In this document: positions 191 through 57,525 of the stretch, piece after piece | How the letters are laid out: each line of letters starts with the position of its first letter | How positions within the stretch are numbered: position 1 is the stretch's first letter | Source of the DNA: a phage | DNA length: 64,000 nt | Sequence record: NC_129898.1 | Strand: one strand, 5' to 3' | Position numbers and translations under genes: made by a program | The notes under the pieces: generated by a model | The model's database searches: none | What the model was told of the DNA's origin: nothing | The model's input: only the letters and a program-made list of their open reading frames with translations

Positions 191-1531
191 ATGAGCAAAA
201 CCAAATTAGAGCTTACCTGGACAGGCAAAAACGAGCGAAAAAAGTTAGATCCGTGCATTTTGTTAGAAGATACGAGCAAGTCTTATCACGCCAGTCAAAA
301 GGTTACCGAAAACGATATTTTTGATAATAAACTGATTTTTGGCGATAACTTACTGGCATTGAAGGCACTAGAGCAAGAGTATGCAGGCAAAGTGAAGTGT
401 GTTTACATAGACCCACCATTCAATACCGGAAGGGATTTTGAGCACTACGATGATAGCCTGGAGCACTCCATTTGGCTGGGCTTAATGCGGGACAGGTTAG
501 AAATAATTCGTAATCTGCTAAGCGATGATGGAGTAATATTCGTTCACCTAGATGACTGCGAAATGGCTTATTTAAAAGTTTTGATGGACGAGATTTTTGG
601 TCGTGCAAATCAGTTAAATACCATATCGATGACCACGAACTGTCCTTCGGGCTTTAAGGCAACAGGAACTACAGTTTTCTCCACAGCAAACTTTTTGCTT
701 GTATATGCAAAAGATCGTACCAAGAAGCCGCTTAACAAAATCTATATACCTAAAGGATATGATACGGGATATAACAAATATCTATTAAACCCGGATGACC
801 ATTATAAAAGTTGGACGTGGTGCGGTATTGCCGATGCGTTTGCAAAGGCCAATGGCTATAAAGATACAAAAGAGGCCAAGAAAAAACTGCCTGATACATT
901 TGATGATGAATTAGCACAATTTGCAATTGATAATGCAGAACGTGTATTTCAATCCGTTGCAATTGGCGGCGGTGCTAAGATAAAGAGAAAAGAAACTATC
1001 GAGAAGTCAAAGAAAGACAGGGATAAGGTTTATGTACATCCAAATGAGGATGTCGAAGGCTTTTATATCGTAAATGGTAGGCAAATGGTATTTTACTCTA
1101 ATAGGCTTTTGGAAATTGACGGTGAGATGCAGCCTGCTGAACTAATAACTGATGTTTGGACTGACATTAGTTGGAATGGAATAGCAAATGAAGGAGGCGT
1201 TAGTTTCAAAAATGGGAAAAAACCTGAAGCGCTTTTAAAGCGGATTTTCGAAATGTGTACGCGAGAAGGGGATTTAGTCTTGGATTCGTTCGGCGGTTCA
1301 GGAACTACTGCTGCTGTAGCTCACAAGATGAAAAGACGTTGGATCTCGGTCGAGCTAGGTGATCATTGTCATACCCATATCATCCCGCGCTTGCAAAAAG
1401 TGATCGATGGCGAAGATCAAAGTGGTATTTCTAAATCTGTAAACTGGCAAGGTGGCGGCGGCTTTCGCTATTACAAACTTACCCCGAACTTAGTTGTGAA
1501 AGATAGGTTTGACTCAGAAGAAGATTTATAG
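191..1531 (+). CDS. DNA methyltransferase, beta-class (Type III Mod-like N6-adenine/N4-cytosine family)
   Basis: LELTWTGK N-terminus; motif IV IDPPFNTG precedes motif I LDSFGGSGTT. Start moved from 137 to ATG 191 because 137 lies inside the leader hairpin. Confidence 0.85.
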   Translation: MSKTKLELTWTGKNERKKLDPCILLEDTSKSYHASQKVTENDIFDNKLIFGDNLLALKALEQEYAGKVKCVYIDPPFNTGRDFEHYDDSLEHSIWLGLMRDRLEIIRNLLSDDGVIFVHLDDCEMAYLKVLMDEIFGRANQLNTISMTTNCPSGFKATGTTVFSTANFLLVYAKDRTKKPLNKIYIPKGYDTGYNKYLLNPDDHYKSWTWCGIADAFAKANGYKDTKEAKKKLPDTFDDELAQFAIDNAERVFQSVAIGGGAKIKRKETIEKSKKDRDKVYVHPNEDVEGFYIVNGRQMVFYSNRLLEIDGEMQPAELITDVWTDISWNGIANEGGVSFKNGKKPEALLKRIFEMCTREGDLVLDSFGGSGTTAAVAHKMKRRWISVELGDHCHTHIIPRLQKVIDGEDQSGISKSVNWQGGGGFRYYKLTPNLVVKDRFDSEEDL

Positions 1532-1590
1532 TAATATTTAAAACATCGAAGGGGAGGTCTACTCTCAGCCCGAGATAAGGAGAACACCGA

Positions 1591-1896
1591 ATGATGAAGC
1601 GTTATAAACCCTACACTTTTGAAATCGATTTCGAACTTGACGATATGCTCACTGTAGAGGCTCAGGCAGTTGTCCAGCTGCCAGATCAGGAGTGCTGTGA
1701 TTCTGATGTTGATTATTATGGATTTAGACAAATTACTGATGTGCATGTTTACCACAACGGAGAAGAGGTGGATTTTCACCAGCTGCCAAACGATCTGCGC
1801 CACTCGATTTACAAACGTGCAGCACGTGAACTAGAGTCCTATTTGGATGCAGCAACAACAGCAGCAGCATTTGCTGAAGAAGTAGGAGGCTTCTAA
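1591..1896 (+). CDS. hypothetical protein (101 aa)
   Basis: ORF with AAGGAG RBS; stop overlaps next start; no recognisable motif. Confidence 0.5.
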   Translation: MMKRYKPYTFEIDFELDDMLTVEAQAVVQLPDQECCDSDVDYYGFRQITDVHVYHNGEEVDFHQLPNDLRHSIYKRAARELESYLDAATTAAAFAEEVGGF

Positions 1897-2294
1897 TGAT
1901 TACAGATGTGAAGATTATTCAATACCACTTAACCAAATTGGAAGATGCTGAAAAAGAGCTTGCAGAAGTTCTGAATAGTGGGTATACTTTACTTACATGC
2001 TCCTGTTCAGACACATACATTGTGTGGACACTTGCTAAGAAGGAAGAACCAGCAGGAATCTTGGTGCCAAACCCTAAGATTATTAGTGAGGTGGACGACT
2101 ACTCTCAGGATGGCCTGCCAGAAGGCTGGGAAGCATGGGAAGGTGGTGAAAACCCTGCACCAGGTAAGTGGGTAAAATACAAGCTGCGGAGTGGTACACA
2201 ACATGCTTACTACTCTGATGATCTGGACTGGGGTCACTCTTCACCAGATTCGTTTGAAAGTCAATATGATATCGTTGCTTATCAGGAAGAATAA
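1896..2294 (+). CDS. hypothetical protein (132 aa)
   Basis: ORF start overlaps upstream stop (TAATG); no recognisable motif. Confidence 0.5.
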   Translation: MITDVKIIQYHLTKLEDAEKELAEVLNSGYTLLTCSCSDTYIVWTLAKKEEPAGILVPNPKIISEVDDYSQDGLPEGWEAWEGGENPAPGKWVKYKLRSGTQHAYYSDDLDWGHSSPDSFESQYDIVAYQEE

Positions 2295-2306
2295 GGAGAT
2301 AGTGTT

Positions 2307-2789
2307 ATGTCAGATTTCATGTGGAAGGTAGGCTATGCTTCTCCTGAAATGTGCGAGGCCTGCTTTGTGAAAATAGGTCGAGAGGATATCGATAAAGTGA
2401 TCCTTAAGTTTCGTGATGTGGCTGTAATCGGCAACCGAGTGCTTAAGCACTTAAAGAATCTGAAGCTCACCAAAAAGAAGTTCTTTGGGCTTTTCGAAGA
2501 GAAAGTTGATGCTTGGACCCATTGCATTCAGGAAGCTAAATCTCACTACAGTGCTATCGTTACCCCAGAACGGGTAGCTAAGATGGAAGGATTCATCAAC
2601 AGCACAGAGTTTGAGTGCCTAAAGGCTGCCCTTGATAGCTATCCAAAGTGCCTCAAACACCTTGACAAGTATGTGGAAAAAGATGGGGAAATGTATCTCA
2701 CCCTGGATGCATACTATGAGATGCAAGAAATTTTAAATTTAGATTTGACATTGGTATCCACCGAGTATACAATAGGTATCCGGGTTTAA
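2307..2789 (+). CDS. hypothetical protein (160 aa)
   Basis: ORF with AAGGAGA RBS; no recognisable motif. Confidence 0.5.
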   Translation: MSDFMWKVGYASPEMCEACFVKIGREDIDKVILKFRDVAVIGNRVLKHLKNLKLTKKKFFGLFEEKVDAWTHCIQEAKSHYSAIVTPERVAKMEGFINSTEFECLKAALDSYPKCLKHLDKYVEKDGEMYLTLDAYYEMQEILNLDLTLVSTEYTIGIRV

Positions 2790-2795
2790 CACTAG

Positions 2796-2823
2796 GCCCT
2801 GCCCGAAAGGGTGGGGCTTTTTG
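2796..2823 (+). terminator. intrinsic terminator
   Basis: Hairpin CCCTGCCC-GAAA-GGGTGGGG followed by T-run; same element recurs at 13919-13948. Confidence 0.6.
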
Positions 2824-2840
2824 CATTAGGAGACAGCAAA

Positions 2841-3605
2841 TTGAAATTTATCTACAAAGAACACTACCACAAAGGTGTTGTGTGGAGTCTATTTGACGGG
2901 TCTGGTGGTGCAGTTATTGACTGGGCAAAAGCTGGATATCTGTGCCTGTGCTTTAACGCAGAAGGCGCTGACCATGGCAGTTATGCAGAGGTGATAACCG
3001 ATCATCCAAACATTCACTACGTGGATTATTGGATTGACCCGTGGTTTCCTCAAGAAACTTTTTGCATGTACCCAGCTCCAGACTTTATTCTTGCATTTCC
3101 TCCGTGCACGCATTTAGCAGTATCAGGTGCTGCACATTTTAAGAAAAAGCTGGCTAAGGATCCTCTGATTCAAATTAATGCTGTAAAAGATGCTCGGGTT
3201 GCAGAAGAGTTAGGAGAGATTTACGATTGCCCGTGGCATGTGGAGAATCCTGTGGGAGTTATGTCCACACTGTGGCGAAAACCTGATTACCGTTTTCATC
3301 CTTCAGATTATGGCGGGTATTTACCGGAGGATGATGTAAACCCGTGGTTTCCTGAATTTATAGCTCCACGTGATGCCTACCCAAAAATAACTTGCGGTTG
3401 GATAGGCAATGGATTTATAATCCCAGCCACAAAACCTGTTCCGCAAATAGTAGATGCGGTTAGTGGTTATTCTATGCAACACGCTAAGCTAGGTGGAAAG
3501 AGTGCAAGGACGAAGATGATTCGAAGCCTTACACCACGTGGCTGGGCTAAAGCTGTATTCTTAGCAAACGAGCCTGCAGTAAGGAGCAGAATTAATGGGC
3601 AGTAA
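2841..3605 (+). CDS. C5-cytosine methyltransferase-like protein (divergent, short)
   Basis: Motif I-like LFDGSGG, motif IV-like FPPCT (Cys kept, PCT not PCQ), motif VI-like HVENPV in canonical order. TTG start after AGGAGA chosen because ORF-track start 2811 lies in the terminator. Confidence 0.45.
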   Translation: MKFIYKEHYHKGVVWSLFDGSGGAVIDWAKAGYLCLCFNAEGADHGSYAEVITDHPNIHYVDYWIDPWFPQETFCMYPAPDFILAFPPCTHLAVSGAAHFKKKLAKDPLIQINAVKDARVAEELGEIYDCPWHVENPVGVMSTLWRKPDYRFHPSDYGGYLPEDDVNPWFPEFIAPRDAYPKITCGWIGNGFIIPATKPVPQIVDAVSGYSMQHAKLGGKSARTKMIRSLTPRGWAKAVFLANEPAVRSRINGQ

Positions 3606-5673
3606 ATTCATGGCATCTGCATACAACCGTTTCGGTGAGCCAAACCCGAAAGCAACCAAATATAAAAGTGGGGGGAGTGTGAAACGAGACTATCGTGATG
3701 AAAAAGAGGTCGAAACTGTAGAGACTGTTTTAGAAAATACTAAAATTGTCCCTGTCCCACAACAAAATATCGGACTAATGGCTGCACAATACTTTGGTGT
3801 GCGATCAGCATTGTCTCAAGAAGATGGGGTAACGGTCACTGCAACATATTTCCCATATTACGACCGCTACGGTAATCTATCTGGCTTTAAAAAGCGCGAC
3901 TGGACAATCCCTAAAGAGCAAAGAGGCCATTTCTCAGTTGTTGGCATAGTAAAGGCCAACTCTCAGATGTTTGGTCAAAAGCTGTGTGCATCCTCCAACA
4001 ACCGCAAGCAGATTAACGTTTGTGAGGGGGAAGGGGATGTTATTGCAGCATGGCAAGCTGCATATCAGATACAAGTGAAAGGTATTCTCACCAATGCTAA
4101 AGCCCCCGCGAAGGTGAAGCAGTGGGCTAAAGAAGTTCAGGATGGGATCGATGCAGTTATCAACGGCGGCGATCTGGCAGGAAAACCCTGCCTGCCTTTT
4201 GTTGGAATTAACTGCGGGTGTGCAAACGCCGTAGATACTTTTGCTAACAATGAGAAATTTATCCGTAGCTACGGAACAGTGGTCCTTGCAATGGACAACG
4301 ATGCAGCTAACGAGGTAGAGAAGCAAAAACACGTTATCAAAGGTGTTGAGGCCACACATAATATCGCAGCATTTTTGATGGCTGATAACGTTTACCACGT
4401 GGAATACCCAGGTGAGGTAAACGACCCTGATGGTGTAAAAGATATTCGTGACATGCTGAAGGCTAAAAAGCTGGAAGATATTGTCAACATGTTCCGTCAC
4501 CCAGTTAAATATGTGCCCGATGCTGTATCTGATTTAGAAGACTTCTCCATTGAGTCTCTTCGTAAGAAGACTTCCAATGGCGTGGATATCAGTGCGGAGT
4601 TCCCTAAATTGCAGAAGATGCTGAAAGGGCTCCACAAAGGCACCTTGATGATGCTGACAGGTCCATCTGGCGGTGGTAAAACAACTGTAGCCAAGAAGCT
4701 GGAACACTGCATCGCAAGATACTTGATGGATCCAACATGCCCTAAAGCTGATGATTATGAAGAGGATGATCGCCTGTGTCTGATTCACCTTGAAGAGGAT
4801 CCTGAGGAAGCAATCAACTCTCTGTACGCTAACCAGTTGGGGTTTGATGTTAAAGAGTTTGTTGAAGACCCTAGTCAGTTCCTGACCGACCAGGAGCACG
4901 CTGAGATTCATCAATCTTGGGCCAAGGCCGGAAAAATCAAAGTGTTCAAGCATTTCGGCTCCATCCCTGTGGATGAGCTGATCACTAAGCTTAAACAAAT
5001 GGTGTGCCTGTATCACTGCCGTTACATTGTGCTGGATCACTTGTCTATGGTGATTTCAGGGCTTAATGTTAAGGATGAGCGCAAAGAACTTGACATGGCT
5101 ATGACCCAACTAGCTGCGTTCTGTAAGCAGTTTAATGTGTTTATCCTGGTGATTGCTCACCTGAAACGTACAGAGATTGTACCTCCTAAGGATAAGGATG
5201 GGAATCCGTTGCCTTTCTGGTACCCTGTACGAAAAGAGAACCTTCGTGGTAGTGCCGGATTGGAGCAACTCAGCTGGGTAGTTGTTGGGGTAGAAGCAGA
5301 AGAGATGGTGGATCGTTCTCGTGGGCGTGTCCGTCTAGTAGGTCTTAAAAACCGTCCAGCAAAAACGTTAGGTATTGCGGACACTTTAGTTATGGATCCG
5401 CACACAGGCAAGTTCCACGATGCCAGCAATTGGTACTGGGATAAAGAAATGCAAATGTTTACAGACGGAGAAGGTGGGGAGGTTGTTTGGAGACCTCAGG
5501 CTATGTTTGAGGATCAGGATCATGCAGTTGTGGAAACACCTATGGGCAAGGTTGTGGCTGATAAGGTTGTAACTCCTACTGTTACCCCAGTTGACACACA
5601 GGAAGACCTTCAGTATGATGATCCGTCCTCTAACCACGTTCCTGGTTTTGAAGACGACGAAACACCTTTTTAA
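3595..5673 (+). CDS. DNA primase-helicase (TOPRIM plus T7 gp4-like helicase)
   Basis: TOPRIM-like CEGEGDV and MDNDAANE; Walker A LTGPSGGGKTT; IVLDHLSMV like T7 gp4 helicase motif. Confidence 0.85.
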   Translation: MGSKFMASAYNRFGEPNPKATKYKSGGSVKRDYRDEKEVETVETVLENTKIVPVPQQNIGLMAAQYFGVRSALSQEDGVTVTATYFPYYDRYGNLSGFKKRDWTIPKEQRGHFSVVGIVKANSQMFGQKLCASSNNRKQINVCEGEGDVIAAWQAAYQIQVKGILTNAKAPAKVKQWAKEVQDGIDAVINGGDLAGKPCLPFVGINCGCANAVDTFANNEKFIRSYGTVVLAMDNDAANEVEKQKHVIKGVEATHNIAAFLMADNVYHVEYPGEVNDPDGVKDIRDMLKAKKLEDIVNMFRHPVKYVPDAVSDLEDFSIESLRKKTSNGVDISAEFPKLQKMLKGLHKGTLMMLTGPSGGGKTTVAKKLEHCIARYLMDPTCPKADDYEEDDRLCLIHLEEDPEEAINSLYANQLGFDVKEFVEDPSQFLTDQEHAEIHQSWAKAGKIKVFKHFGSIPVDELITKLKQMVCLYHCRYIVLDHLSMVISGLNVKDERKELDMAMTQLAAFCKQFNVFILVIAHLKRTEIVPPKDKDGNPLPFWYPVRKENLRGSAGLEQLSWVVVGVEAEEMVDRSRGRVRLVGLKNRPAKTLGIADTLVMDPHTGKFHDASNWYWDKEMQMFTDGEGGEVVWRPQAMFEDQDHAVVETPMGKVVADKVVTPTVTPVDTQEDLQYDDPSSNHVPGFEDDETPF

Positions 5674-5731
5674 TGTTTAACCAAGAGTGGGAGGGGTAGT
5701 ACAACCGCCTCCCCTTTAAGGAGAACTGTAT

Positions 5732-8155
5732 ATGAGTATGTGGTCTTTCGATCTGGAGGCCTCTGGCTTGCTGGAAGATCCAGATCTTTATTATCACTGC
5801 GGTTTGTTTAAAGAGCTGAATAAGAACCGTTTTATGCTGTTCCTTCCTCTAAATGACCGCACACACTACTCGGAAGAGGATGTAGAGAAGGCTAAGAACT
5901 TTATTCTGGCAAAGAGAACTCTTTATAAAGATTTTGAGGTTCGCATAGCAGATTTTTCAGAGTTGGAAGGTTGGCTTACAGGCAACTCAGACTGGTCACC
6001 TACGGCTTTGAACTGTCATAACTGCTACAGCTATGACTTTATGCTGATGGAAAGATTATCCGGTGTTCATTTTGATATGTTCCGTGATCCTAAATGTATG
6101 GGGACTATTAACGACCACCAGGTTAATCTGTTTGATACGTTGGCGATGAGTCGAATCTTGTGGCCTGACCGCCCTTTGCCAAAAGGTTGTCCGGACGCAG
6201 TATTCAATCCAGTTACCAAGAAAATGCAGCCTGTTGGGCCTCATGGCCTTATGGCATGGGGCTATGCCCTTGGTAACCAGAAAGTTCAAATCGATGACTG
6301 GCGTGAGCTTCCGCTGTGGAAGTATGTGGATCGTGTGTTCGAGGACGTTATCATCCAGGAGTTGCTCTGGAAAGAGTTGGTAGCGGAATCAAAAGGTGTA
6401 TTCTACGGCAAATCTGACATGCAGAACTTTATGTATGACCCTGCCAAAGAGAAGCCTAAAGGATTCAAGAAGATTACCTGGAAGAATGCATTACGCCGAG
6501 GCATGCTGCAGCATTTCCTGATGGAGCTGCAGGCTCGACAGGGTGTGTATTTCGACATAGATGGGGCTATTGCTTTACGTGACCGCTGCGATGCGTGGAT
6601 GAAAGAGATCGCTGATCGTGTTGAACCACAACTTCCTTTAAAAGAGTTATCAATGTCTCAGCGGCCTAAGTTCCCTGAAAAGCCGTTTAACCAGGATGGG
6701 ACAATCTCCAATAATGGTTGGAAATGGTTAAAAGACAAGCTTGGCTATCCTGTGGATATGAGCGCTTTAGAGTTCAAAGCTCCTCCTAAGCGAGCATTTA
6801 CCTCCACAGGGGATGTCAGTAAAATGGGGATAAAATGGTGTGAAGAGATGGGCTGTAAAGACCCAGATAAGATGGCTGATTTCTTGAGAGGGTATATCAA
6901 AGGAACTTCTACACCACACCCTTTACCTAAAGAGCTAATGGATCAGGCAATAAGTGACCTACAGCAGAAGCGAATGCCTGACTGCAAGATACCTATGAAA
7001 ATCAGCAATCAGGACGACATCAAGCGATACCTGATCAGTGCTGGTTGGCTCCCAACAATGTGGAGAACTAAGGATGTAACTAAAGACAGCAAGAAGAAAG
7101 CTCTGCCTGATGCTGATGTTGATGCACGAGTATATGCATATATGGACGAGCTTTTAGAGTCAGAGTATTGTGACCTAATTATCAACTTCTGGAACAAAAC
7201 TGATGCTAAGTTTCAGACAACCGTGCACAAGTTCCGAAGCTTCCCTAACTCAGAAAGGATTAAAAAGGAAGTGTTTGGGAAGATACGTAGAAAAGCCAGA
7301 GCGCTTATTACTTCTCCGCAACTGAAAGATACGTTTGGACACCTATGTCCGAATCTTGAAAAGTTGAACGGAGAGATGGCTAAAGATATCGTCTTGTGGT
7401 TATCCTTGCGAAACCGTAGATCGGTCCTTGATCCAATCAAGGAGGATAAGGTTGATACTGGTCTTCTTAATCATCCACGTTTGAAGATTGACCATAAGCT
7501 TCCTGCTAAAAGTTCTGGATTAACAAACACTTCCAGACAGAAACACAGCATTTGTGCAAACATGCCTAAACCATCTCCTAAAGTGGTTATGGGTAAAGAG
7601 ATGCGTAGTCTGTGGGGTGTTCCTCCAGGATACTTTGAGATCGGTATTGACGGGTCCAACTTAGAGCAGCTTATCGGGGCTTGGGGTGCCTTTGAGTTCG
7701 ACAACGGCCTGTACTATGATGTTGTAAGTAACGGGGACGCGCACCAAAACAATGCTGAGGCATATACAAAGGTAGCAGGTAGGGAGGTGTCTCGTAACGA
7801 TGGTAAACCTATCACGTATGGGGTTATGTATGGGGCACAAAAAGATAAAGTTGCAGATATGCTGGATATCTCTCCAGAGCTGGGGCAGAGAGTAATCGAT
7901 GCTCTCTGGGATGCCAACCCAGGCCTTAAGGGGCGTAAAGAGGATCTGGAGAAATTCTGGGAAGCAACAGGTAAGAAATTTATCTACTCTTTTGACGGTC
8001 ATGCCATTTGGACCCGCTCTAAACACTCTTTGCTTAATGCATATCAGCAAAATGGCGGTGCATCGTTGTGCGACTTGGTCGGAATCCTCATGCACCACCA
8101 AATGGTGAAGCGTGGATGGTATGATGAGGGTGTTCGTCGTATTATTTATTACCAT
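5732..8155 (+). CDS. DNA polymerase, family A (T7-like), exon 1
   Basis: FDLEASGL exo motif; GIDGSNLEQL (motif A) and RNDGKPITYGVMYG (motif B) align to T7 gp5; frame stops just before expected motif C. Confidence 0.85.
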
Positions 8156-8483
8156 AAATAACATTGTGGCTTCGTGCAGTGATGCACGTCGAAAACCTCT
8201 TTAATTGACGGGAAGGCTAAGTTGACTTTTACACCTAAACATGGTAAAAGCTCAATATGCTAATCCGCAGCGAAGCATCCGAGAGGATGAACGTTCAGAG
8301 ACTATCGAAAGCATAGCTCCAACACAGTTTGGGGTGAAGAAGCGAGTAGAGTAGGCCAGCAAGTGCGGTCGAAATGAGAGGTGCCTTGGTAACAAGGCAG
8401 TGAGATAGTCCGATCCATACGGGAAACTGTATGGCTATGCACGTAATGGTGCGGGGTAGCTTAACGACCTACCTGAACTATTG
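8156..8483 (+). ncRNA. group I self-splicing intron (ORF-less) in DNA polymerase gene
   Basis: 328 nt break between YYH and DEYQ; exon ends in U, intron ends in G; UUGUGG guide can pair CCAU|AA; P7-like CAGAGACUA (8296-8304) and UAGUCC (8406-8411). Confidence 0.65.
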
Positions 8484-8837: not shown

Positions 8838-8886
8838 TGTAAACTATCAACACACGGAAGTGTTGTTAGACAGAGAGGAGACTTTT

Positions 8887-9586: not shown

Positions 9587-9596
9587 AGGAGGCAGA

Positions 9597-42134: not shown

Positions 42135-42136
42135 TT

Positions 42137-42670
42137 TCATTTCAAGTCTGCCTCTGGTGGTGCCAACCACATAAATGGCGGCAAGTCTAGACGGTTTTTC
42201 TTGTCCCATACAAAATATGCATATGCCTGCCCATCCGTTCTACCATTGGATTGGAATGACGGACGCTTAGATATTGTGATCACAGTGGTAGGTGCATTAT
42301 CAAGCCACCATTCAAATCTGGCCTTGCTTTCCAGAAAATTAAGACGCAAAAGCATAATAACTACATCGGCATCTTTCAACGCCTTGTCTACAAACTCACG
42401 AGCCAAGCTGTACGGTGGGTTGGTGATAATACAGTCAACATGGTTGTATTCTGTATTCAGATAGTCAACACCTTCTTGGATTTCTCCCCATGCAGATCCT
42501 AACGGCATACGGGAGTAGAACACACCTGAGGCACTATTCCTGCAAGGCTCTAAGTAAGTCCAGTCTTCTGGGAACGGAATAAGGTCATACAGCCCTTCTG
42601 CACACCACTCCGGTGTCACATACTCATCGTAAGCGTTACGTTGTTCATCAGGTTTTCTAGCACAAGTCAT
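42137..42670 (-). CDS. DNA N6-adenine methyltransferase (phage Dam-like, small)
   Basis: YVTPEW N-terminal motif and DCIITNPPY catalytic motif. Confidence 0.8.
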   Translation of the reverse strand: MTCARKPDEQRNAYDEYVTPEWCAEGLYDLIPFPEDWTYLEPCRNSASGVFYSRMPLGSAWGEIQEGVDYLNTEYNHVDCIITNPPYSLAREFVDKALKDADVVIMLLRLNFLESKARFEWWLDNAPTTVITISKRPSFQSNGRTDGQAYAYFVWDKKNRLDLPPFMWLAPPEADLK

Positions 42671-49132: not shown

Positions 49133-49407
49133 TTTTTCTCTCCAAAACCATTCTTAACAAAAGAGATGAAATCGTCAGCACCACCTATGTGGATACTGTC
49201 AAGGTTGCTTTCCAAGAAGATCTGAGGCAACGTTCTGGGAACAAATGGGCTACACTTCTCGATAAGCTCTTCTTTTGTGTATCCCTCACCTAGCGTCTTG
49301 TATACGAAAGGTATGCCTTTGCTGACTGCAAATTCTTTTGCTCTTACACAATGTGGGCAGTTATCCTTGCCGTAAATGATGATGAAAAAAGATTTTTCGC
49401 AGCTCAT
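49129..49407 (-). CDS. glutaredoxin-like protein
   Basis: Active site YGKDNCPHC; between nrdB and nrdD. Confidence 0.75.
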   Translation of the reverse strand: MSCEKSFFIIIYGKDNCPHCVRAKEFAVSKGIPFVYKTLGEGYTKEELIEKCSPFVPRTLPQIFLESNLDSIHIGGADDFISFVKNGFGEKK

Positions 49408-49410
49408 ATA

Positions 49411-50499: not shown

Positions 50500-50537
50500 T
50501 ATTCTACCTCTAAAATGGGGCCGAAGCCCCTTTTAAA

Positions 50538-52853
50538 TTACAGTGCACAACTTTCGCAATACGGATCTTCAACTGAACTATCTGCAATCAAAGGATAGTT
50601 CTTTCTGGTTTCATCTTCAGCCTGTTTCTTCGCGTGAAGCTCCTCTGTCAAAGAGTCACCAGCACCAACCCGAGAGTTTAAGTAATACCATGTCTTCATC
50701 CCGAATTTAGTAGCACGGATAAGATACCCAAGCTGCTCCTTCATTGAAATTTTACCATCTTTCAACTTGGTGTAATCAATATATAGGTCAGCACTGATTG
50801 CCTGTCCTGTGAATTTTTGAATCACAGCATACATATCAATCATGTCGTTAGTATCAACGTCCCAAGCCGAGGTATAATACTCTTTCAGTTCATCATATTC
50901 AGGAACGATAAACAGCACCTGCCCTTGTGGTGACTTTTTAAAGATAATGTGTTCACGGACAGGATAAACCCCGTTAGTGGTGTTTGTTGCCAACGAAGAG
51001 CTTTCATTAGGCATGTATGCTTCAAGAACGCTATTACGTAGTCCACCGTTTTCAATAATTTCTTTACGTAACCCTTCCCAATCCTGCTTAAGAGAAGGAT
51101 CTTTCACCACACTATCGACCTCTTTGTTATAAGTGTCGATTGGTAACCAACCATCTGGGTATTTTGTTTTATGCATCCACTCGCAGACACCACGCTCTTT
51201 TGCCAATCGTAAACTTGCCTTATGCAAGCTGTAGCTGTGGAGCTCTGCAAGATCGTGAACAAGCTGTTTACTTTCAGGAGATCCGTAAGCAACCTTGTGG
51301 CTGGCAATAAAATGTGCAACATTGGTAAGGCCAACCCCGATGGATCTGCGTTTTTTAACAGTGCTCTCCATATTTTCATACGGATATGTCATGATTTCCA
51401 TAACATTGTCAATCATAAGCACAGTGTAGTATGCAACATCCTCATACTCCTCTGGGGTAACCCTTCCCGCTACAAGAGATGACAGGAAGCACAATGCAAC
51501 TTCGCCATCATCAACATCGTACTTGAAGATATTACGCATATCTGAATAGCCTTTTGTCGGGAGGGCTATTTCTGCACACAGGTTACTTGAATAGATTACA
51601 TCTTTAAAAGGTGTATGTCTATTCATCTCATCTGTCCAGTACACATACAATCTGCCAACCTCGGTACGCTGAGTGATCAGTTCAACAGCAAGGTCTCTAG
51701 CACGGATCCATGTTTTAGGAATGCTGTCATCTTTAGCAATACGATCAACCTCTGCATCAAACTCCTCCATAGACATGGTGAAGATACCCTCGTGCAGTTG
51801 AGGCGCGTGCTTATAGGAAACAAGCATCCAATCTAAATTCTTAGCCACACGGTTGATAAATGACCTATTAATACCTATAGAGTAGTCCATGGTGTTGATT
51901 CTTTTTGAAGCAACAGTCATAGGGTTTCTCAAACGGATTAGCTCATCAATCTGTGGGTCTAGCGCAAGAAATGATACCGTTGCCGAACCTCCGCGTGATT
52001 GTTGTCTATTCTCCTTAACCCCAGCATCAATACCTCGATAATATGGAAGCTTACCCATATGTTTAATAGTGTTACCACGAACACCATCACCTGCAGATCT
52101 TGATGATAAATAGTAGCCAATACCTGCTTGGTTAACCGTCATTGTGTACGCAACTTCACGTGCCACACCAATAGATTTTGCTGTATCGTCAGCTTTTATT
52201 ACACAACAAGATGCATACCCTGTCTTACCTGTGCGTAGACCGTTTAAGTACGGTGTCGGGGCATTGATCTTTAAGTCTGACAGATAAGTGTATAATTTTA
52301 CAACATCGTCAATACGGCGTTCTTTCGGCATATTTTTCATGACAGCCATCGCTATCCCCATGAACATCATCTGTGGGGATTCGAACAGGGTGTCTTTAAG
52401 AGTATCCTTGATCCCGTATTTGTCTCGAAACTGTTTAAGGACTGCATAGCCATAACCAAGGTCTTTACTGTGATCAATAACAGTGTCTAAAGTGTTTAAC
52501 TCGGTAAAGCTATAACCCATATCCTCCCAATACCCTTTATCAACCATGGTGTTGTAAAATGATGGTAAGGAAGGGATCTTTGTAAATCCTCCAAAAGCCT
52601 CTTTATAAATCTGACCGATAAGAACACGACCAGCCATACGAGAATGTGCTTCGTCCTTACGGCTAACACAGGAGTCTATAATAGCTTGGTTAACTTCTTT
52701 GGTTGTGCATCCATCATACAGCCGTTTGTATGCATCAAGTGCAATATGTGACCAATTGCCGTTACCGTCGTCACCGAAAATAGCTGCCTTATTTAAACGT
52801 TCCGGATCGAATGCCACTTCACATCCGTTGCTTTTAATTACCTTGGTGATCAA
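50538..52853 (-). CDS. nrdA: ribonucleotide reductase large subunit (class Ia)
   Basis: SSNLCAEIALPT active-site region; C-terminal CESCAL tail; aligns to E. coli NrdA. Confidence 0.9.
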   Translation of the reverse strand: MITKVIKSNGCEVAFDPERLNKAAIFGDDGNGNWSHIALDAYKRLYDGCTTKEVNQAIIDSCVSRKDEAHSRMAGRVLIGQIYKEAFGGFTKIPSLPSFYNTMVDKGYWEDMGYSFTELNTLDTVIDHSKDLGYGYAVLKQFRDKYGIKDTLKDTLFESPQMMFMGIAMAVMKNMPKERRIDDVVKLYTYLSDLKINAPTPYLNGLRTGKTGYASCCVIKADDTAKSIGVAREVAYTMTVNQAGIGYYLSSRSAGDGVRGNTIKHMGKLPYYRGIDAGVKENRQQSRGGSATVSFLALDPQIDELIRLRNPMTVASKRINTMDYSIGINRSFINRVAKNLDWMLVSYKHAPQLHEGIFTMSMEEFDAEVDRIAKDDSIPKTWIRARDLAVELITQRTEVGRLYVYWTDEMNRHTPFKDVIYSSNLCAEIALPTKGYSDMRNIFKYDVDDGEVALCFLSSLVAGRVTPEEYEDVAYYTVLMIDNVMEIMTYPYENMESTVKKRRSIGVGLTNVAHFIASHKVAYGSPESKQLVHDLAELHSYSLHKASLRLAKERGVCEWMHKTKYPDGWLPIDTYNKEVDSVVKDPSLKQDWEGLRKEIIENGGLRNSVLEAYMPNESSSLATNTTNGVYPVREHIIFKKSPQGQVLFIVPEYDELKEYYTSAWDVDTNDMIDMYAVIQKFTGQAISADLYIDYTKLKDGKISMKEQLGYLIRATKFGMKTWYYLNSRVGAGDSLTEELHAKKQAEDETRKNYPLIADSSVEDPYCESCAL

Positions 52854-53158
52854 TTTGCTTCCTCCACTTCATCAACGTATTTATCAAGGCAGGTATCAGT
52901 ATCTTGTTGGATAAAGGTATCCTCTTCTACGGAGATATTTATAATTTTACCTGTATACTCGTCATAATAAACATCATCATACATTTTAATATCATTTGTC
53001 AGGCCGTTGAACCAAAGCCAACCAACATACTCTGACCGACTTGCAAAACCAAGATCCTTCCACTTGGAGTTATGACTCATCTTCACCACCTTAGCTTTCA
53101 ATACCGAATAATTTTTCCAGGCGATGCAGATCTTCAAAATTGAAAGGTTCATCAACAA
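52850..53158 (-). CDS. hypothetical protein
   Basis: ORF overlapping nrdA start. Confidence 0.4.
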   Translation of the reverse strand: MLMNLSILKICIAWKNYSVLKAKVVKMSHNSKWKDLGFASRSEYVGWLWFNGLTNDIKMYDDVYYDEYTGKIINISVEEDTFIQQDTDTCLDKYVDEVEEAN

Positions 53159-53591
53159 TATGAATATCTTCAGCCTTTTCAGATTGTTTTGTATACTTTC
53201 TTACATTAACACGATCTTCTACAGGGATATCATACGGAAGATCTTGAACAAGCATTGCCTCACCGGGTGCTTTATCTACATCTAAAATATCTACACCGTT
53301 ATACATTTGCGGGTATCTAAAGTCTGCACGCATGACACCAGCAAATACATCTGCCTTTCGATAATGGGTTGGCTTATTTTTGCATCGAACGTTTTTTCCA
53401 CGAAGAACATCAATATTTTTTAAATCAAACCCTACAGCAAAGAGTGCAGCTCGGAGACCGTTTCGTGTGCGAACGTTAAATCCGGGAACAGTAGATAGGA
53501 AATCTAAAGTAACTGAAATAAATGTCTTTTTAGGAATCATAACATTACTCATATCTGTCTCCATTTCTGGCTCACCAACAAAGTGAGCCAT
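53091..53591 (-). CDS. hypothetical protein (166 aa)
   Basis: ORF between thyX and nrdA; no recognisable motif. Confidence 0.45.
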   Translation of the reverse strand: MAHFVGEPEMETDMSNVMIPKKTFISVTLDFLSTVPGFNVRTRNGLRAALFAVGFDLKNIDVLRGKNVRCKNKPTHYRKADVFAGVMRADFRYPQMYNGVDILDVDKAPGEAMLVQDLPYDIPVEDRVNVRKYTKQSEKAEDIHIVDEPFNFEDLHRLEKLFGIES

Positions 53592-53650
53592 TATTATAGA
53601 TTATCTGATGCTATTAGTCAACACAAAAGTTACCTATCGCTGTGATAGGA

Positions 53651-54634
53651 TTAACCTTTCATGAAGTGGTTATTAAGCAGCTGTCTGTGCTGAACCCACC
53701 CACAAAAGTTGGCAGACCAGAATTTACCATCACGGTCTTGATGGGTTACACCTTCCTGCCAAACACAGCTGTCCTGTGTGATTTCACATGAAGACAGGTA
53801 GTAGTTTAAACGTTCCATTGCGTTATCGTGATCCATAGGTGTTGCCTGGTGCTCGTAGGGGCTTGCATGAATACGATCCCCACCAATCAATTTTTTAGCC
53901 ACACTGTCTGCCTTTTCAAACGTGCTGTCAATATTTCGATAAGATACTTGTGCACAGCAACTAGCACTAATAGACAGAGCTTCTTTAGTATCGAGAATGC
54001 AGAGCTTTCCTTCTGTGTCACGTACAGCGTAGTTAAACTCTCCGTCCAAATAAACATGCTCTACATATGGGGTGTGCCATTGACCCGGTTTAAGGATTTC
54101 AGGAGTGCTATTCATAATAGCATCCTGCATGCAATTAGCCAACATCTGAATCGTAGGATCCGCATCGTGCCAGCAACGTAGGTGGAAAAAATTATTCCAC
54201 TCGGTGCTTGTTACAACTGTTTTCATGCGCTGAAACGGCTCTACTAAGCGGTTACATACTTGCTTATGGTAACCAGCAAGGGCGAACTTCTCTGCATGCC
54301 AAGCGGCGTTTTTTGCAGCTTCTTTCCAAAACTCTTCAGGGGTCATCTCCATGTCAGTGTATTCTACACGGATCTTTTGATCGTGTTCCCCTCCATCTTC
54401 CATTCCTCGCTTATTTACACCGAAGCGAACTGGCATTGCCGGATTCTCAACAATCTGCTGCAGCATCTTGCTGACAGGCACTGCACGAGAAGACATGGCG
54501 TTTCGGCTGAACATTCGATGTGTCATAAGCTCTGAGTGAATAATTCGAGGATATTCTAGCTCAAAAGTAGTGATACGCTTACCTTTCTCGGAAATGCTGT
54601 CGGCAATAATCTTTGCAGTGCACAGTTTTAGCAT
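53651..54634 (-). CDS. thyX: flavin-dependent thymidylate synthase
   Basis: ThyX signature region ELMTHRMFSRNAMSSR (variant of RHRx7S). Confidence 0.7.
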   Translation of the reverse strand: MLKLCTAKIIADSISEKGKRITTFELEYPRIIHSELMTHRMFSRNAMSSRAVPVSKMLQQIVENPAMPVRFGVNKRGMEDGGEHDQKIRVEYTDMEMTPEEFWKEAAKNAAWHAEKFALAGYHKQVCNRLVEPFQRMKTVVTSTEWNNFFHLRCWHDADPTIQMLANCMQDAIMNSTPEILKPGQWHTPYVEHVYLDGEFNYAVRDTEGKLCILDTKEALSISASCCAQVSYRNIDSTFEKADSVAKKLIGGDRIHASPYEHQATPMDHDNAMERLNYYLSSCEITQDSCVWQEGVTHQDRDGKFWSANFCGWVQHRQLLNNHFMKG

Positions 54635-54834
54635 TATTTAGCTCTCCTTGTTTTAATTTTGGAAATTTCGTCTGGGTTTATGTTGGCCTTAAATGCAAGG
54701 TATCTGTTAAACATATCGGAGCACATATCTTGGGTGATCCTAGAGGCATACACCAGCTTACCGCCCAGATCATACACCTCTATCCAGTCACCGTATCTGA
54801 CTACAGGATCGCCACCTTTAGAACATCTGCCCAT
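54634..54834 (-). CDS. hypothetical small protein
   Basis: Overlapping start/stop. Confidence 0.4.
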   Translation of the reverse strand: MGRCSKGGDPVVRYGDWIEVYDLGGKLVYASRITQDMCSDMFNRYLAFKANINPDEISKIKTRRAK

Positions 54835-54835
54835 T

Positions 54836-55429
54836 TCAAATACCTTCTAAAAACTTCCCTATTTTATACCAGCTGTTAGCGGTATAGTCAACACTAACCT
54901 TCAACTCCTCGAATTGCTCGTAAGGAGTGTCTTTTAAGATTTTAATAACTTCAGGACGTGAAGCGAATTGATTCAGGTATTCATGCCTGTCGTCAATTAT
55001 AACATCTACAGCCACATTACCTTTGAAATGTGTGGCGTAGAAGCCGTGACCCTGGGTGTGATCGTCCAGATCCATAAAATCGCTGGTCCAACGCTTTAAG
55101 AACCTTGATTTAGATGCAAGGTGACCTTTCTTACATACAGAGATAAATGCAAGCTTGTGACCACGAGCCACCAAATCTTTCATAACCTCAATAGCCCCCT
55201 CTTCAGGCTTAAGAAAGTCGTAGAGGAACGGGTCACTCCAGAAATCAAAAGGCCCTATGATGTTTTCTTTGGGGCGATCAGGCCAATACTTTGACAGATC
55301 GTAATACATCAGTCCGTTAGAAGGTTTAGCGACTGTCTTGCTGGCTGGGCCATACAAACGCTCTAGCCATTCCCACCATGCTGTTCCTGAGTCTACCAGT
55401 GTTAAATCTACATCAATTCCGATCAGCAT
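54836..55429 (-). CDS. HAD-superfamily phosphatase (probable 5'-nucleotidase)
   Basis: HAD motif I IGIDVDLTLVD and motif IV-like VIIDDR. Confidence 0.6.
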   Translation of the reverse strand: MLIGIDVDLTLVDSGTAWWEWLERLYGPASKTVAKPSNGLMYYDLSKYWPDRPKENIIGPFDFWSDPFLYDFLKPEEGAIEVMKDLVARGHKLAFISVCKKGHLASKSRFLKRWTSDFMDLDDHTQGHGFYATHFKGNVAVDVIIDDRHEYLNQFASRPEVIKILKDTPYEQFEELKVSVDYTANSWYKIGKFLEGI

Positions 55430-55434
55430 TGTTC

Positions 55435-56037
55435 TCAGACCTCTTTAGCATCAATATACTTGCACACAATCTCAGATGCGCACTCCCAAGGAGCTCCCTC
55501 AGGGTTAACAACATCAAACTCGATACCTTTTATCCCGTTCTTCTCTAGGCTAAGGTAAGTTCTGGAATCATTTCCCCAATCATATCCTGCACGGTGGATA
55601 CGGAACAGTAGAAGATCGCCACCTGTGCTGTATGCGTACTCGCCAAGGCATGCCAGCTCCTCTTTGAAGCCACCATCGGAGTAAACAACAACCCCTTTAC
55701 CTTCAGGGAAATCTTTCTTCAAGGATGCGACTGCGGCCTTACCGAAAGCATCTTCACCAAAGATAGGTTTAATCAGATTTTCACTACAATGGATCATCCA
55801 TTCTCGCGGAGAAACATGCTTGCCGTCTATCATTAAGAACGGGCACGGTTCTTCTTTGTAGCGGCGATCATAAAGTGCATTCCACAACTGTGGTGAAATA
55901 CCAGCTGCCTTAATTGCCACACTGAATAGCATTTCCTTTACCTCGCGGTGATGCGAGTTTGGAATGGCTTCCAACAAAAGATCTGCGATATGGTCTTTTC
56001 CAGAACTTGGTGGAGCATTAAGAACAATAATATCCAT
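55435..56037 (-). CDS. nucleotide kinase (dNMP kinase-like P-loop protein)
   Basis: N-terminal IIVLNAPPSSGKDHIADL resembles T4 gp1 dNMP kinase P-loop. Confidence 0.5.
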   Translation of the reverse strand: MDIIVLNAPPSSGKDHIADLLLEAIPNSHHREVKEMLFSVAIKAAGISPQLWNALYDRRYKEEPCPFLMIDGKHVSPREWMIHCSENLIKPIFGEDAFGKAAVASLKKDFPEGKGVVVYSDGGFKEELACLGEYAYSTGGDLLLFRIHRAGYDWGNDSRTYLSLEKNGIKGIEFDVVNPEGAPWECASEIVCKYIDAKEV

Positions 56038-56240
56038 TAAAAACCTCCGTGGTATTCTTCAACTGCATCAATAATACTTTTACACTTATCTACCAGTTCG
56101 TTAGCTACTACGGCATCGTCTTCCCAAACAGCCTCCTCAATCTGATCAAGCAGTGATCGCATCTTATTCATCATTTCTGGAACAAAGCTTTCTGAAAAGC
56201 TGTCTGGGATTGTTAACTCTGGTGTCATTGCGGTCTCCAA
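56037..56240 (-). CDS. hypothetical small acidic protein
   Basis: Overlapping start/stop. Confidence 0.4.
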   Translation of the reverse strand: METAMTPELTIPDSFSESFVPEMMNKMRSLLDQIEEAVWEDDAVVANELVDKCKSIIDAVEEYHGGF

Positions 56241-56255
56241 TCATACTGTGCGTTA

Positions 56256-56714
56256 TTAGAAGTTTGTTTTTACACGTCCCTTTTCATCTACTTCGTTGTT
56301 AGCTAAAAGCGTTACAAAGTCTGTAAAACGAACATGAAGAACTCTTTTCTTATCCAGGTATCCTAAAGCCACACCTGAGAAATTTACCATCAAAGGTGCT
56401 AAAGAAGCTCTAGCACTGAAATGCTGCTGTTCCACTCTTCCAACACCCTTAGTATAAGAAGGGTTGAGATTGTAAGTTCTGAATCCAAGTTTTGTTGGAG
56501 CTTTAGAATTAAAAACAACTTTATAACGTTTCTTACTCAGCTTATGTTCCAGAATAAGCATGCCCTTTTCGCCACGGATAAGCTGAAAATCTGTAAAATG
56601 CTCTTTTAAGACAAAAGGTAGTGCCAGCCCCATAGCCTGCCCCCTTTGCACGGCTGTCTCACCAAAAGCTTTTGCATCAGTAAGCTCTTTAGTCAAGTCT
56701 ATACTTTTGATCAT
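56256..56714 (-). CDS. hypothetical protein next to methyltransferase
   Basis: Overlaps 3' end of the methyltransferase gene by 26 nt; weak D-x15-E-H-K pattern. Confidence 0.45.
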   Translation of the reverse strand: MIKSIDLTKELTDAKAFGETAVQRGQAMGLALPFVLKEHFTDFQLIRGEKGMLILEHKLSKKRYKVVFNSKAPTKLGFRTYNLNPSYTKGVGRVEQQHFSARASLAPLMVNFSGVALGYLDKKRVLHVRFTDFVTLLANNEVDEKGRVKTNF

Positions 56715-57525
56715 ACCTGGTCTCCAAAATGTATTGTAGTTCTTTCTTGCCTATACTCTTCATTCCAGCAGTCTTACCTGCTTCTTCTTGAAAAGAAGAA
56801 TAGCATTCAGCAAACACTCTGTCAACACCATCAACTAAAGATTTTATGAAATATGTTGATTCTTCAGATTTTGGGTCATCCTTCCCCAATACTTTTCCAG
56901 CATTATACCCAACACGCCTTATGCAGAAGTCGTAGTCATCTGGTGTACTAAAAGAAAATAGCTTATTCTCCCCAATCTCTACAGGATCCCTATTGCACAC
57001 CTTTTTCTCCCAAATTTGGAAAACACATGGCACGTCATAAGGTTTGCCGTTGAGTAAAAACGAGTTCTTGGGGCACCTTTCGCTGTAAATAAGGTGCATC
57101 GACATGTCCAGTTTGTTTGCAAAAAATATTTTTTCAAATGTCCGTGGCAAGATGAAGGCTATAGCCCCACCAGGCTCTAGCAATGATGCACAGTGGTTAA
57201 AAAACTTGCAAGCTAAAGACGAATTTTTGCCGAATGGAGGATTACCTATGAAGACATCAGCTTTAGGGTACACCTCTAAGAAGTTTGCCTTAATACACGG
57301 TGTTGGGCCTTCAAATTCAGGATCTGGTACCAAATCGTACGACAGTATCTCTGAAAATAGTTTTGAAAAAGAACCCTTTCCAGCAGAAGGCTCAACGTAT
57401 GCACAACTCCCATACTTACCTTTTACTTTACCAACAAGATATTCTGCATACTCAGGGTCTGTGTAATATTTGTCGTTGGACTCTTTCTTGCTCAAGGTGC
57501 CTCCAAAATGAAAAGGGAGGCGCAA
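56689..57525 (-). CDS. DNA N6-adenine methyltransferase (gamma-class)
   Basis: Motif I EPSAGKGSF precedes motif IV GNPPFG. Confidence 0.75.
   Translation of the reverse strand: MRLPFHFGGTLSKKESNDKYYTDPEYAEYLVGKVKGKYGSCAYVEPSAGKGSFSKLFSEILSYDLVPDPEFEGPTPCIKANFLEVYPKADVFIGNPPFGKNSSLACKFFNHCASLLEPGGAIAFILPRTFEKIFFANKLDMSMHLIYSERCPKNSFLLNGKPYDVPCVFQIWEKKVCNRDPVEIGENKLFSFSTPDDYDFCIRRVGYNAGKVLGKDDPKSEESTYFIKSLVDGVDRVFAECYSSFQEEAGKTAGMKSIGKKELQYILETRYDQKYRLD

Follow-up and report, generated by a model that had tools for sequence, protein, structure and literature searches.

Why does one phage carry four DNA methyltransferases of different classes, and what would their marks do for it? The window analysed here, a 64 kb stretch of sequence record NC_129898.1, belongs to a Vequintavirus, an rV5/FV3-like E. 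coli myophage; in nucleotide comparisons its DNA is nearer to FV3 than to Bas51 (Escherichia phage WalterGehring). The original prediction for this stretch had named four methyltransferase genes and taken them as heavy methylation serving anti-restriction. All four ORFs are present with their catalytic motifs intact, and the class assignments are borne out: a Type III Mod-like beta-class enzyme (A), a C5-like enzyme (B, by motifs and fold), a Dam (C) and an enzyme with the gamma motif order (D). We consider it probable (roughly 0.7 for the reading as a whole) that these are four orphan Vequintavirus methyltransferases, with no cognate restriction enzyme, that perform narrow, motif-by-motif self-marking of phage DNA. 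The four-enzyme observation is confirmed yet already known, as over 100 sister phages have these genes annotated and a C homolog is a proven GATC methylase; the sole new lead is the gene pair formed by D and a small neighbouring ORF, E.

Four methyltransferase genes without a restriction partner

Enzyme A (191..1531, plus strand; 446 aa) contains motif IV (DPPF), a central recognition domain and motif I (FGGSG). It matches PF01555 (E=3.9e-42) and, over its full length, the PADLOC model of Type III methyltransferases (MTase_III, E=9.6e-205), and its best PDB matches are the Mod subunits of H. pylori (6k0w, 2.5e-30) and EcoP15I (4zcf, 1.7e-23). Over residues 1-440 it is 60% identical to a Mod encoded on a Salmonella IncFIB plasmid (WP_176704763, 562 aa), where a 912-aa DEAD/DEAH protein follows and completes a Mod-Res pair. 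No counterparts of the tail of this Mod or of its Res were found in the window, and there is no Res beside the A ortholog in Bas51 (bas51_0070, 95.5% identical), where the upstream helicase is PIF1-like. Based on these comparisons, A is a C-terminally truncated beta-class N6-adenine enzyme derived from a Type III Mod; because it lacks both the Mod tail and a nearby Res, it counts as an orphan that belongs to no restriction system.

Enzyme B (2841..3605, plus strand; 254 aa) carries FDGSGG (motif I), PPC (motif IV, with the catalytic Cys89) and ENP (motif VI). It has no Pfam or NCBIfam match above thresholds and matches phrog_757 (E=5e-87). Its family comprises ~3,550 proteins of roughly 230 aa each, a few of which carry PF00145, and the residues P88-C89 and E135-N136-P137, which include the catalytic Cys and Glu, are invariant. 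The AF2 model (pLDDT 90, pTM 0.89) retrieved exclusively C5 methyltransferases among its top 50 Foldseek matches in the PDB, including DNMT3A/3B/3C and 3g7u from prophage CP-933R (E ~1e-5, TM ~0.5). The Bas51 ortholog (bas51_0074, 98.8% identical) is annotated as a 'Dcm-like C5 cytosine methyltransferase'. From its motifs and predicted fold, B is a compact C5-cytosine methyltransferase-like enzyme, and it would add 5mC at some short motif.

Enzyme C (42137..42670, minus strand; 177 aa, with ITNPPY at residues 82-87) matches phrog_799 (E=5e-67). Its scores against the Dam families are sub-threshold (19.2 vs 28.1 bits for PF05869; 16.1 vs 97 bits for TIGR01712), and a match to the EcoRI methylase also falls under the Pfam cut-off. 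C is 100% identical to bas51_0176 of Bas51, an N6-adenine GATC methylase and retron trigger (PMC12548924). The mutations D69G, D79G and T83P in bas51_0176 cause loss of function and retron escape (PMC12548924), and among proteins A-D only C fits them, having D69, D79 and T83. By its identity to this characterised enzyme, C is a functional Dam making Gm6ATC.

Enzyme D (56689..57495, minus strand) has EPSAGKG followed by NPPF. It had been predicted at 56689-57525; the gene and its gamma class stand, but the start is most likely a TTG at 57495 with a GGAGG ribosome-binding site, giving 268 aa, since homologs begin at an aligned MSK and the BASEL annotation has 268 aa. The protein matches phrog_5172 (E=5e-125) and, over its full length, the PADLOC model MTase_II (PDLC03255, E=2.4e-32). 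Residues E35-P36, G39 and N85-P86-P87-F88 are invariant across the 821 members of its family, and D is 95.9% identical to bas51_0200. These motifs and matches identify D as a gamma-class Type II-like N6-adenine methyltransferase.

The genes for A and B lie within a replication module and those for C and D within a nucleotide-metabolism module. The four genes fall in two regions (1-12000 and 41000-58600) that were used as queries, and some 110 Vequintavirus records align with each of them at a coverage of 80% or more, so the set is no chance cluster; in more than 100 genomes the orthologs show 95-99% conservation, and those in Bas51 are 95-100% identical. When all window ORFs of 80 aa or longer were scanned for motifs, no fifth plausible methyltransferase emerged. 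The inspected parts of Bas51, which exclude 78-104 kb, have no annotated methyltransferase besides these four; the window approximately matches that excluded segment, and its scan there gave no fifth candidate. Nothing resembling Res or a restriction enzyme turned up in the window, in agreement with the earlier remark that, ORF 56256-56714 possibly excepted, no cognate restriction enzyme was obvious.

Methylated motifs and what they could protect

In the published nanopore data for Bas51, in which m6A was called and 5mC was not, wild-type DNA has 1405 m6A sites at GATC, 509 at GTAC and 576 at other sequences, and DNA of the T83P mutant has 35, 511 and 349, respectively (PMC12548924). In this near-identical phage, virion DNA thus carries methylation that host patterns do not account for, at GTAC and also at GATC, where the phage enzyme is required. 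The drop from 1405 to 35 GATC sites shows that, in Bas51, host Dam is no substitute for C on phage DNA. No GTAC methylase is known from E. coli K-12, so a phage enzyme is needed for that mark, and since it is independent of C (509 vs 511 sites), either A or D makes it. M.HpyAXII, which produces GTm6AC, belongs to the small gamma enzymes of the M.TaqI kind, and its catalytic residue is N87; by analogy we favour D over A, and D would make GTm6AC, built like M.HpyAXII and probably with E as a small partner. A, which would be a Type III Mod that was captured and shortened, may methylate a short asymmetric motif among the unassigned 'other' m6A sites. For A and B, activity in Vequintavirus is predicted.

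It is doubtful that at least one of the four is no active DNA methyltransferase, with D acting on RNA like METTL5 or A being a decaying Mod relic. D has weak similarity to PDB profiles, the best being Ta1320/METTL5 (5e-4 to 0.05, vs 0.12 for M.TaqI), and this resemblance to an rRNA m6A methylase counts against our preferred reading; JGI names some D homologs 'predicted RNA methylase', A is missing the C-terminal 127 aa of Mod, and Bas51 resolves only two m6A motifs against three adenine methyltransferase genes. However, the full-length match of D is to Type II DNA methyltransferase models, catalytic motifs are intact throughout, the strong conservation described above extends to all four, and a third motif could be hidden among the 349 unassigned m6A sites.

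The window contains 344 GATC and 133 GTAC sites, densities that scale to the Bas51 counts if nearly all such sites are methylated. GATC is not avoided (O/E 1.02) and GTAC is depleted (O/E 0.67), which is unexpected under the self-marking reading if GTAC is fully protected. Could the four enzymes form a broad shield, methylating heavily and letting the phage escape many host R-M systems? Their different classes and intact motifs, the near-complete, phage-dependent methylation of GATC and GTAC in Bas51 and the lack of GATC avoidance would agree with this. However, full methylation of both motifs would modify only ~2.6% of adenines, and many 6-bp palindromes are avoided in the window, suggesting site avoidance over masking. 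Moreover, the BASEL study described Vequintavirinae as 'exceptionally susceptible' to R-M systems, apparently without 'any effective protection', based on a panel of six (EcoKI, EcoCFT_I, EcoRI, EcoRV, EcoCFT_II and EcoP1_I), none of which takes its name from GATC or GTAC sites. Protection, if there is any, must therefore be motif-specific, and general restriction immunity is not given by these enzymes; we consider the shield unlikely. Of the original prediction, phage-dependent methylation holds, 'heavy' was an overstatement and general protection falls. Susceptibility to all six systems also weighs against the self-marking reading, for which the defensive benefit is putative.

Self-marking of replicating phage DNA would be narrow, blocking only nucleases that read the same motifs in unmethylated form: those of the MboI/DpnII type, those of the RsaI/HpyAXII/PabI type, and the Type III lineage ancestral to A. 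It comes at a cost, as retron defence systems sense the activity of C.

A further possibility, which we regard as rather improbable, is that methylation is chiefly for the phage's own handling of its DNA and not for defence, for example as a mark on replicated DNA for packaging or gene timing (as with Dam at P1 pac), or by keeping GATC fully methylated in fast-replicating DNA, out of reach of host MutH and SeqA. The genes are embedded in replication and nucleotide-metabolism modules, host Dam leaves the DNA unmethylated when C is inactive, all four genes are kept in ~110 genomes although no R-M protection was measured, and the literature names control of P1 packaging among the roles of methylation in viruses. 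Yet loss-of-function mutants of bas51_0176 (D69G, D79G, T83P) are viable and plate like wild type without retrons (PMC12548924), and in the window, which does not include the terminase and pac region, neither GATC nor GTAC sites cluster more than expected by chance.

The D-E gene pair

The start of ORF E (56256..56714, minus strand; 152 aa) lies 26 nt inside the end of D. The protein belongs to phrog_9938, of unknown function, and its AF2 model (pLDDT 49) gives no usable fold. A search of 1.84 billion representative proteins brought up only five relatives. Y64, K65, P85, S86, K89, G90 and R93 are invariant. In Phapecoctavirus an E-like gene precedes a D homolog (53% identical to D of the window), and in marine viral contigs an E-like gene overlaps one (41% identical); the two are thus adjacent or overlapping in all three groups, Vequintavirus included, with their order swapped between viruses. 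This arrangement indicates that E is a conserved and genuinely linked partner of D.

E had been proposed as a possible restriction enzyme, which would make D-E a phage-borne R-M pair, with E a novel small endonuclease cutting unmethylated GTAC (e.g. in host DNA) and D protecting the phage. The linkage across distant viruses and the GTAC methylation of Bas51 would fit, as would the GTAC systems HpyAXII and PabI, in which a gamma-class methylase is paired with an unusual nuclease. Type II restriction enzymes are also notoriously hard to detect by sequence. Nevertheless, E matches no nuclease or restriction model (no hit in Pfam, NCBIfam, PADLOC or PDB), its alignment contains no invariant Asp, Glu or His, the apparent D42...E55-x-K57 is unconserved, the proteins are small (132-152 aa), and some D homologs (e.g. 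GAP32, KIL3) have no detectable E. E is not demonstrably a nuclease, and we regard such a pair as very unlikely.

Relation to known methylation systems

A shares with Type III Mod subunits (4zcf, 6k0w, WP_176704763) the beta-class order, DPPF and FGGSG, and the central recognition domain. It differs from WP_176704763 in missing the last ~127 residues and in having no Res in the window. B, like the C5 methyltransferases of PF00145 (M.HaeIII, the DNMT3A/3B catalytic domain, 3g7u), has FxGxG, PC and EN(V/P) with invariant Cys and Glu, and its predicted Rossmann-type fold is best matched by these enzymes. It is far shorter, with a minimal recognition domain, sub-threshold scores and a TM of only ~0.5.

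D resembles M.TaqI and M.HpyAXII in having motif I before motif IV (NPPF/Y), in its small size and in where the catalytic Asn lies (N85 vs N87); its resemblance to M.HpyAXII is an analogy. D has no PabI-type restriction partner beside it, and its conserved small partner E is not a feature of these enzymes.

C has the same protein sequence as bas51_0176 and the same neighbourhood, with a ClpP-like protease upstream and a glycosidase downstream; no difference between the two was detectable, although the genomes that carry them differ. C scores under the thresholds of both T1-type Dam families, PF05869 and TIGR01712. Like these and the Dam enzymes of P1 and T-even phages, it is phage-borne, without a restriction partner, and GATC-methylating. 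In Certrevirus CB7, a relative within the Vequintavirinae, a Dam and a cytosine methylase have been reported, and ClaI digests were consistent with Dam methylation.

Four methyltransferase genes in a Vequintavirus

The window belongs to a Vequintavirus, one of the rV5/FV3-like E. coli myophages, with 96-98% identity to phage FV3 and EPFV3-03/2025; in about 110 records, both query regions that hold the candidate genes are covered to 80% or more (megablast). As the original prediction held, four methyltransferase ORFs are present at this locus and all carry catalytic motifs; when every window ORF of 80 aa or longer was scanned for motifs, no fifth credible methyltransferase emerged. The four genes, which we refer to as A to D, are already annotated in genomes of the BASEL collection. 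In its member Bas51, A corresponds to bas51_0070 (95.5% identity), C to bas51_0176 (100%) and D to bas51_0200 (95.9%), each a 'putative N6 adenine methyltransferase', and B to bas51_0074, a 'Dcm-like C5 cytosine methyltransferase' (98.8%). Many GenBank Vequintavirus records likewise label the four genes methyltransferases. Public knowledge thus covers the four genes and the class of each, one of the activities and the methylome of a near-identical phage, and the finding as it stands brings little new.

Two further observations concern the relatives. Around 20-27 GenBank records of the MG0656xx series ('Campylobacter phage' A1xx/Cxx, labelled C. jejuni) match both query regions of this E. coli Vequintavirus at 91-95% identity, and the Campylobacter host attribution of these records looks doubtful. 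Homing-endonuclease content varies between the window phage and its close relative Bas51: the DNA polymerase ORF of the window (5732-8161, + strand) is unbroken and encodes 809 aa, and the Bas51 polymerase (L002 6897-10516) is annotated as a join of two pieces, with genes for homing endonucleases both within it and next to it. No tRNA genes were identified in the whole window.

Gene A (191-1531, + strand) encodes a 446-aa protein that matches PF01555 far above the cut-off (145 bits vs 26.7, E=3.9e-42) and is covered over its whole length by the PADLOC MTase_III model (E=9.6e-205; profile positions 2-446 of 575). Its nearest PDB relatives are Type III Mod subunits, from H. pylori (6k0w, 2.5e-30), EcoP15I (4zcf, 1.7e-23) and Mbo45V. 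The motifs follow the beta-class order (motif IV, recognition domain, motif I), with VYIDPPFN at about residue 75 and LDSFGGSGTT at about residue 365, a spacing from DPPF to FGGSG of ~290 residues. A 562-aa homolog encoded on Salmonella IncFIB plasmids shares 60% identity across residues 1-440 of A, which align with its residues 1-435. Directly after the plasmid gene comes one for a DEAD/DEAH protein of 912 aa, an arrangement classic for Mod-Res pairs. The last 127 residues of the plasmid Mod have no counterpart anywhere in the window, a tblastn search with a cognate-type Res found no Res-like sequence there, and the ORFs downstream of A have no Pfam or PADLOC match. A helicase encoded upstream of the Bas51 ortholog was considered as a Type III Res and rejected, being PIF1-like. 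Like a Type III Mod in family match and motif order, but lacking both the Res neighbour and the C-terminal region, A is by these comparisons a captured, C-terminally shortened, orphan Mod. Directly after A lies an ORF of 101 aa (1591-1896, + strand) that matches phrog_4240 (unknown function) and, weakly, phrog_1573 'DNA methyltransferase' (E=6.5e-4); the C-terminal tail that A lacks relative to the plasmid Mod is not matched by this ORF.

Gene B (2841-3605, + strand) encodes a compact protein with the motifs FDGSGG, PPC and ENP and a match to phrog_757 (E=5e-87). Its family comprises ~3,550 hits, phage and prophage proteins of ~230 aa, a few of which carry PF00145. P88-C89 of the PC motif is invariant among 36 homologs, as is E135-N136-P137, and G20-S21-G22 is nearly so. 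B itself has no Pfam, NCBIfam or PADLOC match, and a profile of the family retrieved only C5 methyltransferases from the PDB, weakly (E ~0.2-0.5; DNMT3B and M.HaeIII included). The AlphaFold2 model of B is confident (pLDDT 90, pTM 0.89), and the best 50 PDB matches in Foldseek are all C5 cytosine methyltransferases (probability 1.00, E ~1e-5, TM 0.4-0.56), among them 3g7u, an enzyme of E. coli prophage CP-933R, and the catalytic domains of DNMT3A, 3B and 3C. B therefore resembles the C5 cytosine methyltransferases in motifs I, IV and VI and in predicted fold, although it does not reach the PF00145 or NCBIfam thresholds, and its assignment as a C5-like putative methyltransferase is supported on both counts. 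The nanopore data available for Bas51 were called for 6mA only.

GATC and GTAC methylation

Gene C (42137-42670, - strand) encodes a Dam-like protein with a catalytic ITNPPY at residues 82-87 and a match to phrog_799 (E=5e-67). Matches to the T1-type phage Dam families are below threshold (PF05869, 19.2 bits vs 28.1; TIGR01712, 16.1 vs 97), as is an EcoRI-methylase match. Direct evidence on this enzyme comes from a 2025 study in PLoS Biology, in which every Bas51 escapee from two retrons was mutated in 'an adenine methyltransferase', and the engineered substitutions D69G, D79G and T83P in this methyltransferase abolished retron defence (PMC12548924). The enzyme was toxic when expressed alone and was sensed by the retrons (PMC12548924). 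Nanopore 6mA calls in Bas51 gave the motif GATC, nearly gone in T83P: wild-type phage had 1405 m6A sites at GATC, 509 at GTAC and 576 elsewhere, and T83P had 35, 511 and 349, respectively (PMC12548924). D69, D79 and T83 occur together only in C among the window candidates, T83 being the T of ITNPPY. Given the GATC loss in T83P, these three residues and the 100% identity to bas51_0176, C is a functional Dam that methylates the adenine of GATC, an activity carried over from the literature; that the published GATC result carries over to the window phage we regard as certain. The fall from 1405 to 35 sites also indicates that host Dam is no substitute for the phage enzyme during infection.

The same study bears on a neighbouring gene. 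About 1.2 kb downstream of C, an ORF of 175 aa (40387-40914, - strand; phrog_13467, unknown function) is by position and size the counterpart of the 'putative glycosidase' bas59_0152/bas51_0171. A premature stop at R87 of the Bas51 glycosidase gene co-occurred in four of eight retron escapees and alone relieved Retron-Asa1 defence (PMC12548924).

Gene D (56689-57495, - strand) encodes a protein with EPSAGKG followed by NPPF, and matches phrog_5172 (E=5e-125). The TTG at 57495 is a better start for D than 57525 and gives a predicted 268 aa: it has a GGAGG ribosome-binding site, it is where homologs begin, and the length agrees with the 268 aa annotated in Bas59. Motif I lies N-terminal to motif IV (NPPF), the gamma-class arrangement, and 34 homologs all retain E35, P36, G39 and N85-P86-P87-F88. 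The PADLOC Type II methyltransferase model PDLC03255 covers residues 8-253 (E=2.4e-32; profile positions 2-249 of 269), the Pfam Eco57I match is below the cut-off (17.7 bits vs 25.3), and the PDB profile matches, all weak, go partly to METTL5/Ta1320 and partly to M.TaqI. Many homologs of D (P0136, P0147, P0168 and others) carry a precomputed Pfam label, PF26055, which our Pfam-A search returned neither for D nor for those homologs.

The GTm6AC mark of Bas51 does not depend on C, as shown by its 509 sites in the wild type and 511 in T83P. No methylation of GTAC is known from E. coli K-12. The other adenine-methyltransferase candidates, in the inspected Bas51 regions and in the window, are A and D only, which narrows the GTm6AC activity to two genes. 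The window contains 344 GATC sites (O/E 1.02) and 133 GTAC sites (O/E 0.67), and these counts, scaled to 140 kb and both strands, fit the published ones if nearly every site is modified. A characterised GTm6AC enzyme, M.HpyAXII, is a small, M.TaqI-like gamma-type methyltransferase with catalytic N87, and GTm6AC is known to prevent cutting by RsaI (PMC2588503). By description D is similar, a small gamma enzyme with N85 in the corresponding motif. Type III Mods typically read short asymmetric sites, and the 349 'other' m6A sites left in T83P could hold such a motif. On the strength of these analogies we prefer, at roughly 65:35, the assignment of GTm6AC to D and of an asymmetric motif to A.

A possible, narrow effect of methylation on restriction

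The original prediction took the four enzymes to indicate heavy DNA methylation as anti-restriction. 'Heavy' is an overstatement, because GATC and GTAC together, fully methylated, would account for ~2.6% of adenines. A protective effect can only be narrow and motif by motif, and general resistance is contradicted by BASEL phenotyping, in which the Vequintavirinae were 'exceptionally susceptible' to a panel of six R-M systems (EcoKI, EcoCFT_I, EcoRI, EcoRV, EcoCFT_II and EcoP1_I). We found no further Vequintavirus nanopore methylation literature, and related literature adds only the Vequintavirinae relative Pectobacterium phage CB7, which is reported to encode Dam and cytosine methylases and to give ClaI digests that fit Dam methylation.

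The window lacks many 6-bp palindromes rich in G+C, including CGATCG, CCGCGG, GGCGCC, CCCGGG and CTCGAG; for CGATCG, 9.1 occurrences were expected under a maximal-order Markov model and none was observed. These absences suggest restriction-site avoidance as a strategy parallel to methylation. The most depleted 4-mers are CTAG (O/E 0.64) and GTAC (O/E 0.67). We also considered a switch like that at P1 pac and rejected it, as neither GATC nor GTAC clusters beyond chance in the window. The longest GATC-free gap (28670-30523, 1.85 kb) and the longest GTAC-free gap (30080-34550, 4.5 kb) both fall at the ORF-poor region near 28-30 kb, the point at which GC skew changes sign along with the coding strand.

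The most likely mechanism is one in which orphan enzymes, encoded among replication genes (A and B) and nucleotide-metabolism genes (C and D), would methylate a small number of short motifs in the phage DNA as it replicates. Such marking would stop only nucleases that read those same motifs, and its price would be detectability by retrons. In this group of phages, possession of four methyltransferases is not the same as resistance to restriction, and the Dam-like enzyme works against the phage, since retrons sense it.

The small gene adjoining D

A small ORF, E (56256-56714, - strand; 'hypothetical' in Bas51, 98.0% identity), had been put forward as a possible restriction enzyme. E has no match in Pfam, NCBIfam, PADLOC (restriction-enzyme models included) or PDB sequences, and the E profile retrieved nothing meaningful from the PDB. 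No signature of a PD-(D/E)xK, HNH, GIY-YIG, PLD or half-pipe nuclease could be recognised. Two candidate nuclease signatures were rejected: a PD-(D/E)xK pattern (D42...E55-H-K57) is not conserved in distant homologs, and a GIY-YIG-like RYK...SYTKG..R has the wrong spacing, no conserved Glu and no Pfam match. The invariant residues are Y64, K65, P85, S86, K89, G90 and R93; none of them is acidic (D or E) or a histidine. An exhaustive HMMER search found five relatives among 1.84 billion representative proteins, and the AlphaFold2 model, built on a 7-sequence alignment, falls short of the quality that a fold search needs (pLDDT 49, pTM 0.37). We consider it very improbable that E is a restriction enzyme.

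E is clearly tied to D genetically. In Vequintavirus the two genes share 26 nt, at the start of E and the end of D. The D homolog gp120 of Phapecoctavirus tuntematon (53% identity) is directly preceded by an E-like gene, gp119. On a TARA marine contig the D homolog (41% identity) lies downstream of an E-like gene and overlaps with it, an arrangement repeated on a second short contig. Some D homologs, such as those of GAP32 and KIL3, occur with no detectable E, and those in two large bacterial contigs have no recognisable restriction partner. E is best read as an accessory partner of D.

The conserved, overlapping and order-swapped linkage, which extends from coliphages to marine viruses, raises a more specific though unlikely idea, that D and E form a two-gene viral module not recognised before, either R-M-like or a methyltransferase with its activator. 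Within such a module, E would be either an endonuclease or glycosylase of new fold acting on unmethylated GTAC, or an obligatory specificity or activator subunit. If the endonuclease or glycosylase version were true, the pair would constitute a phage-carried mini R-M system directed against host or competitor DNA. The D-E pair, together with B as an unusually small C5-type protein of a ~3,550-member family, offers cheap targets for finding new methyltransferase specificities and partners. In its activator version, the D-E module, a minimal gamma-class methyltransferase with a small partner, would resemble TRMT112 with METTL5.
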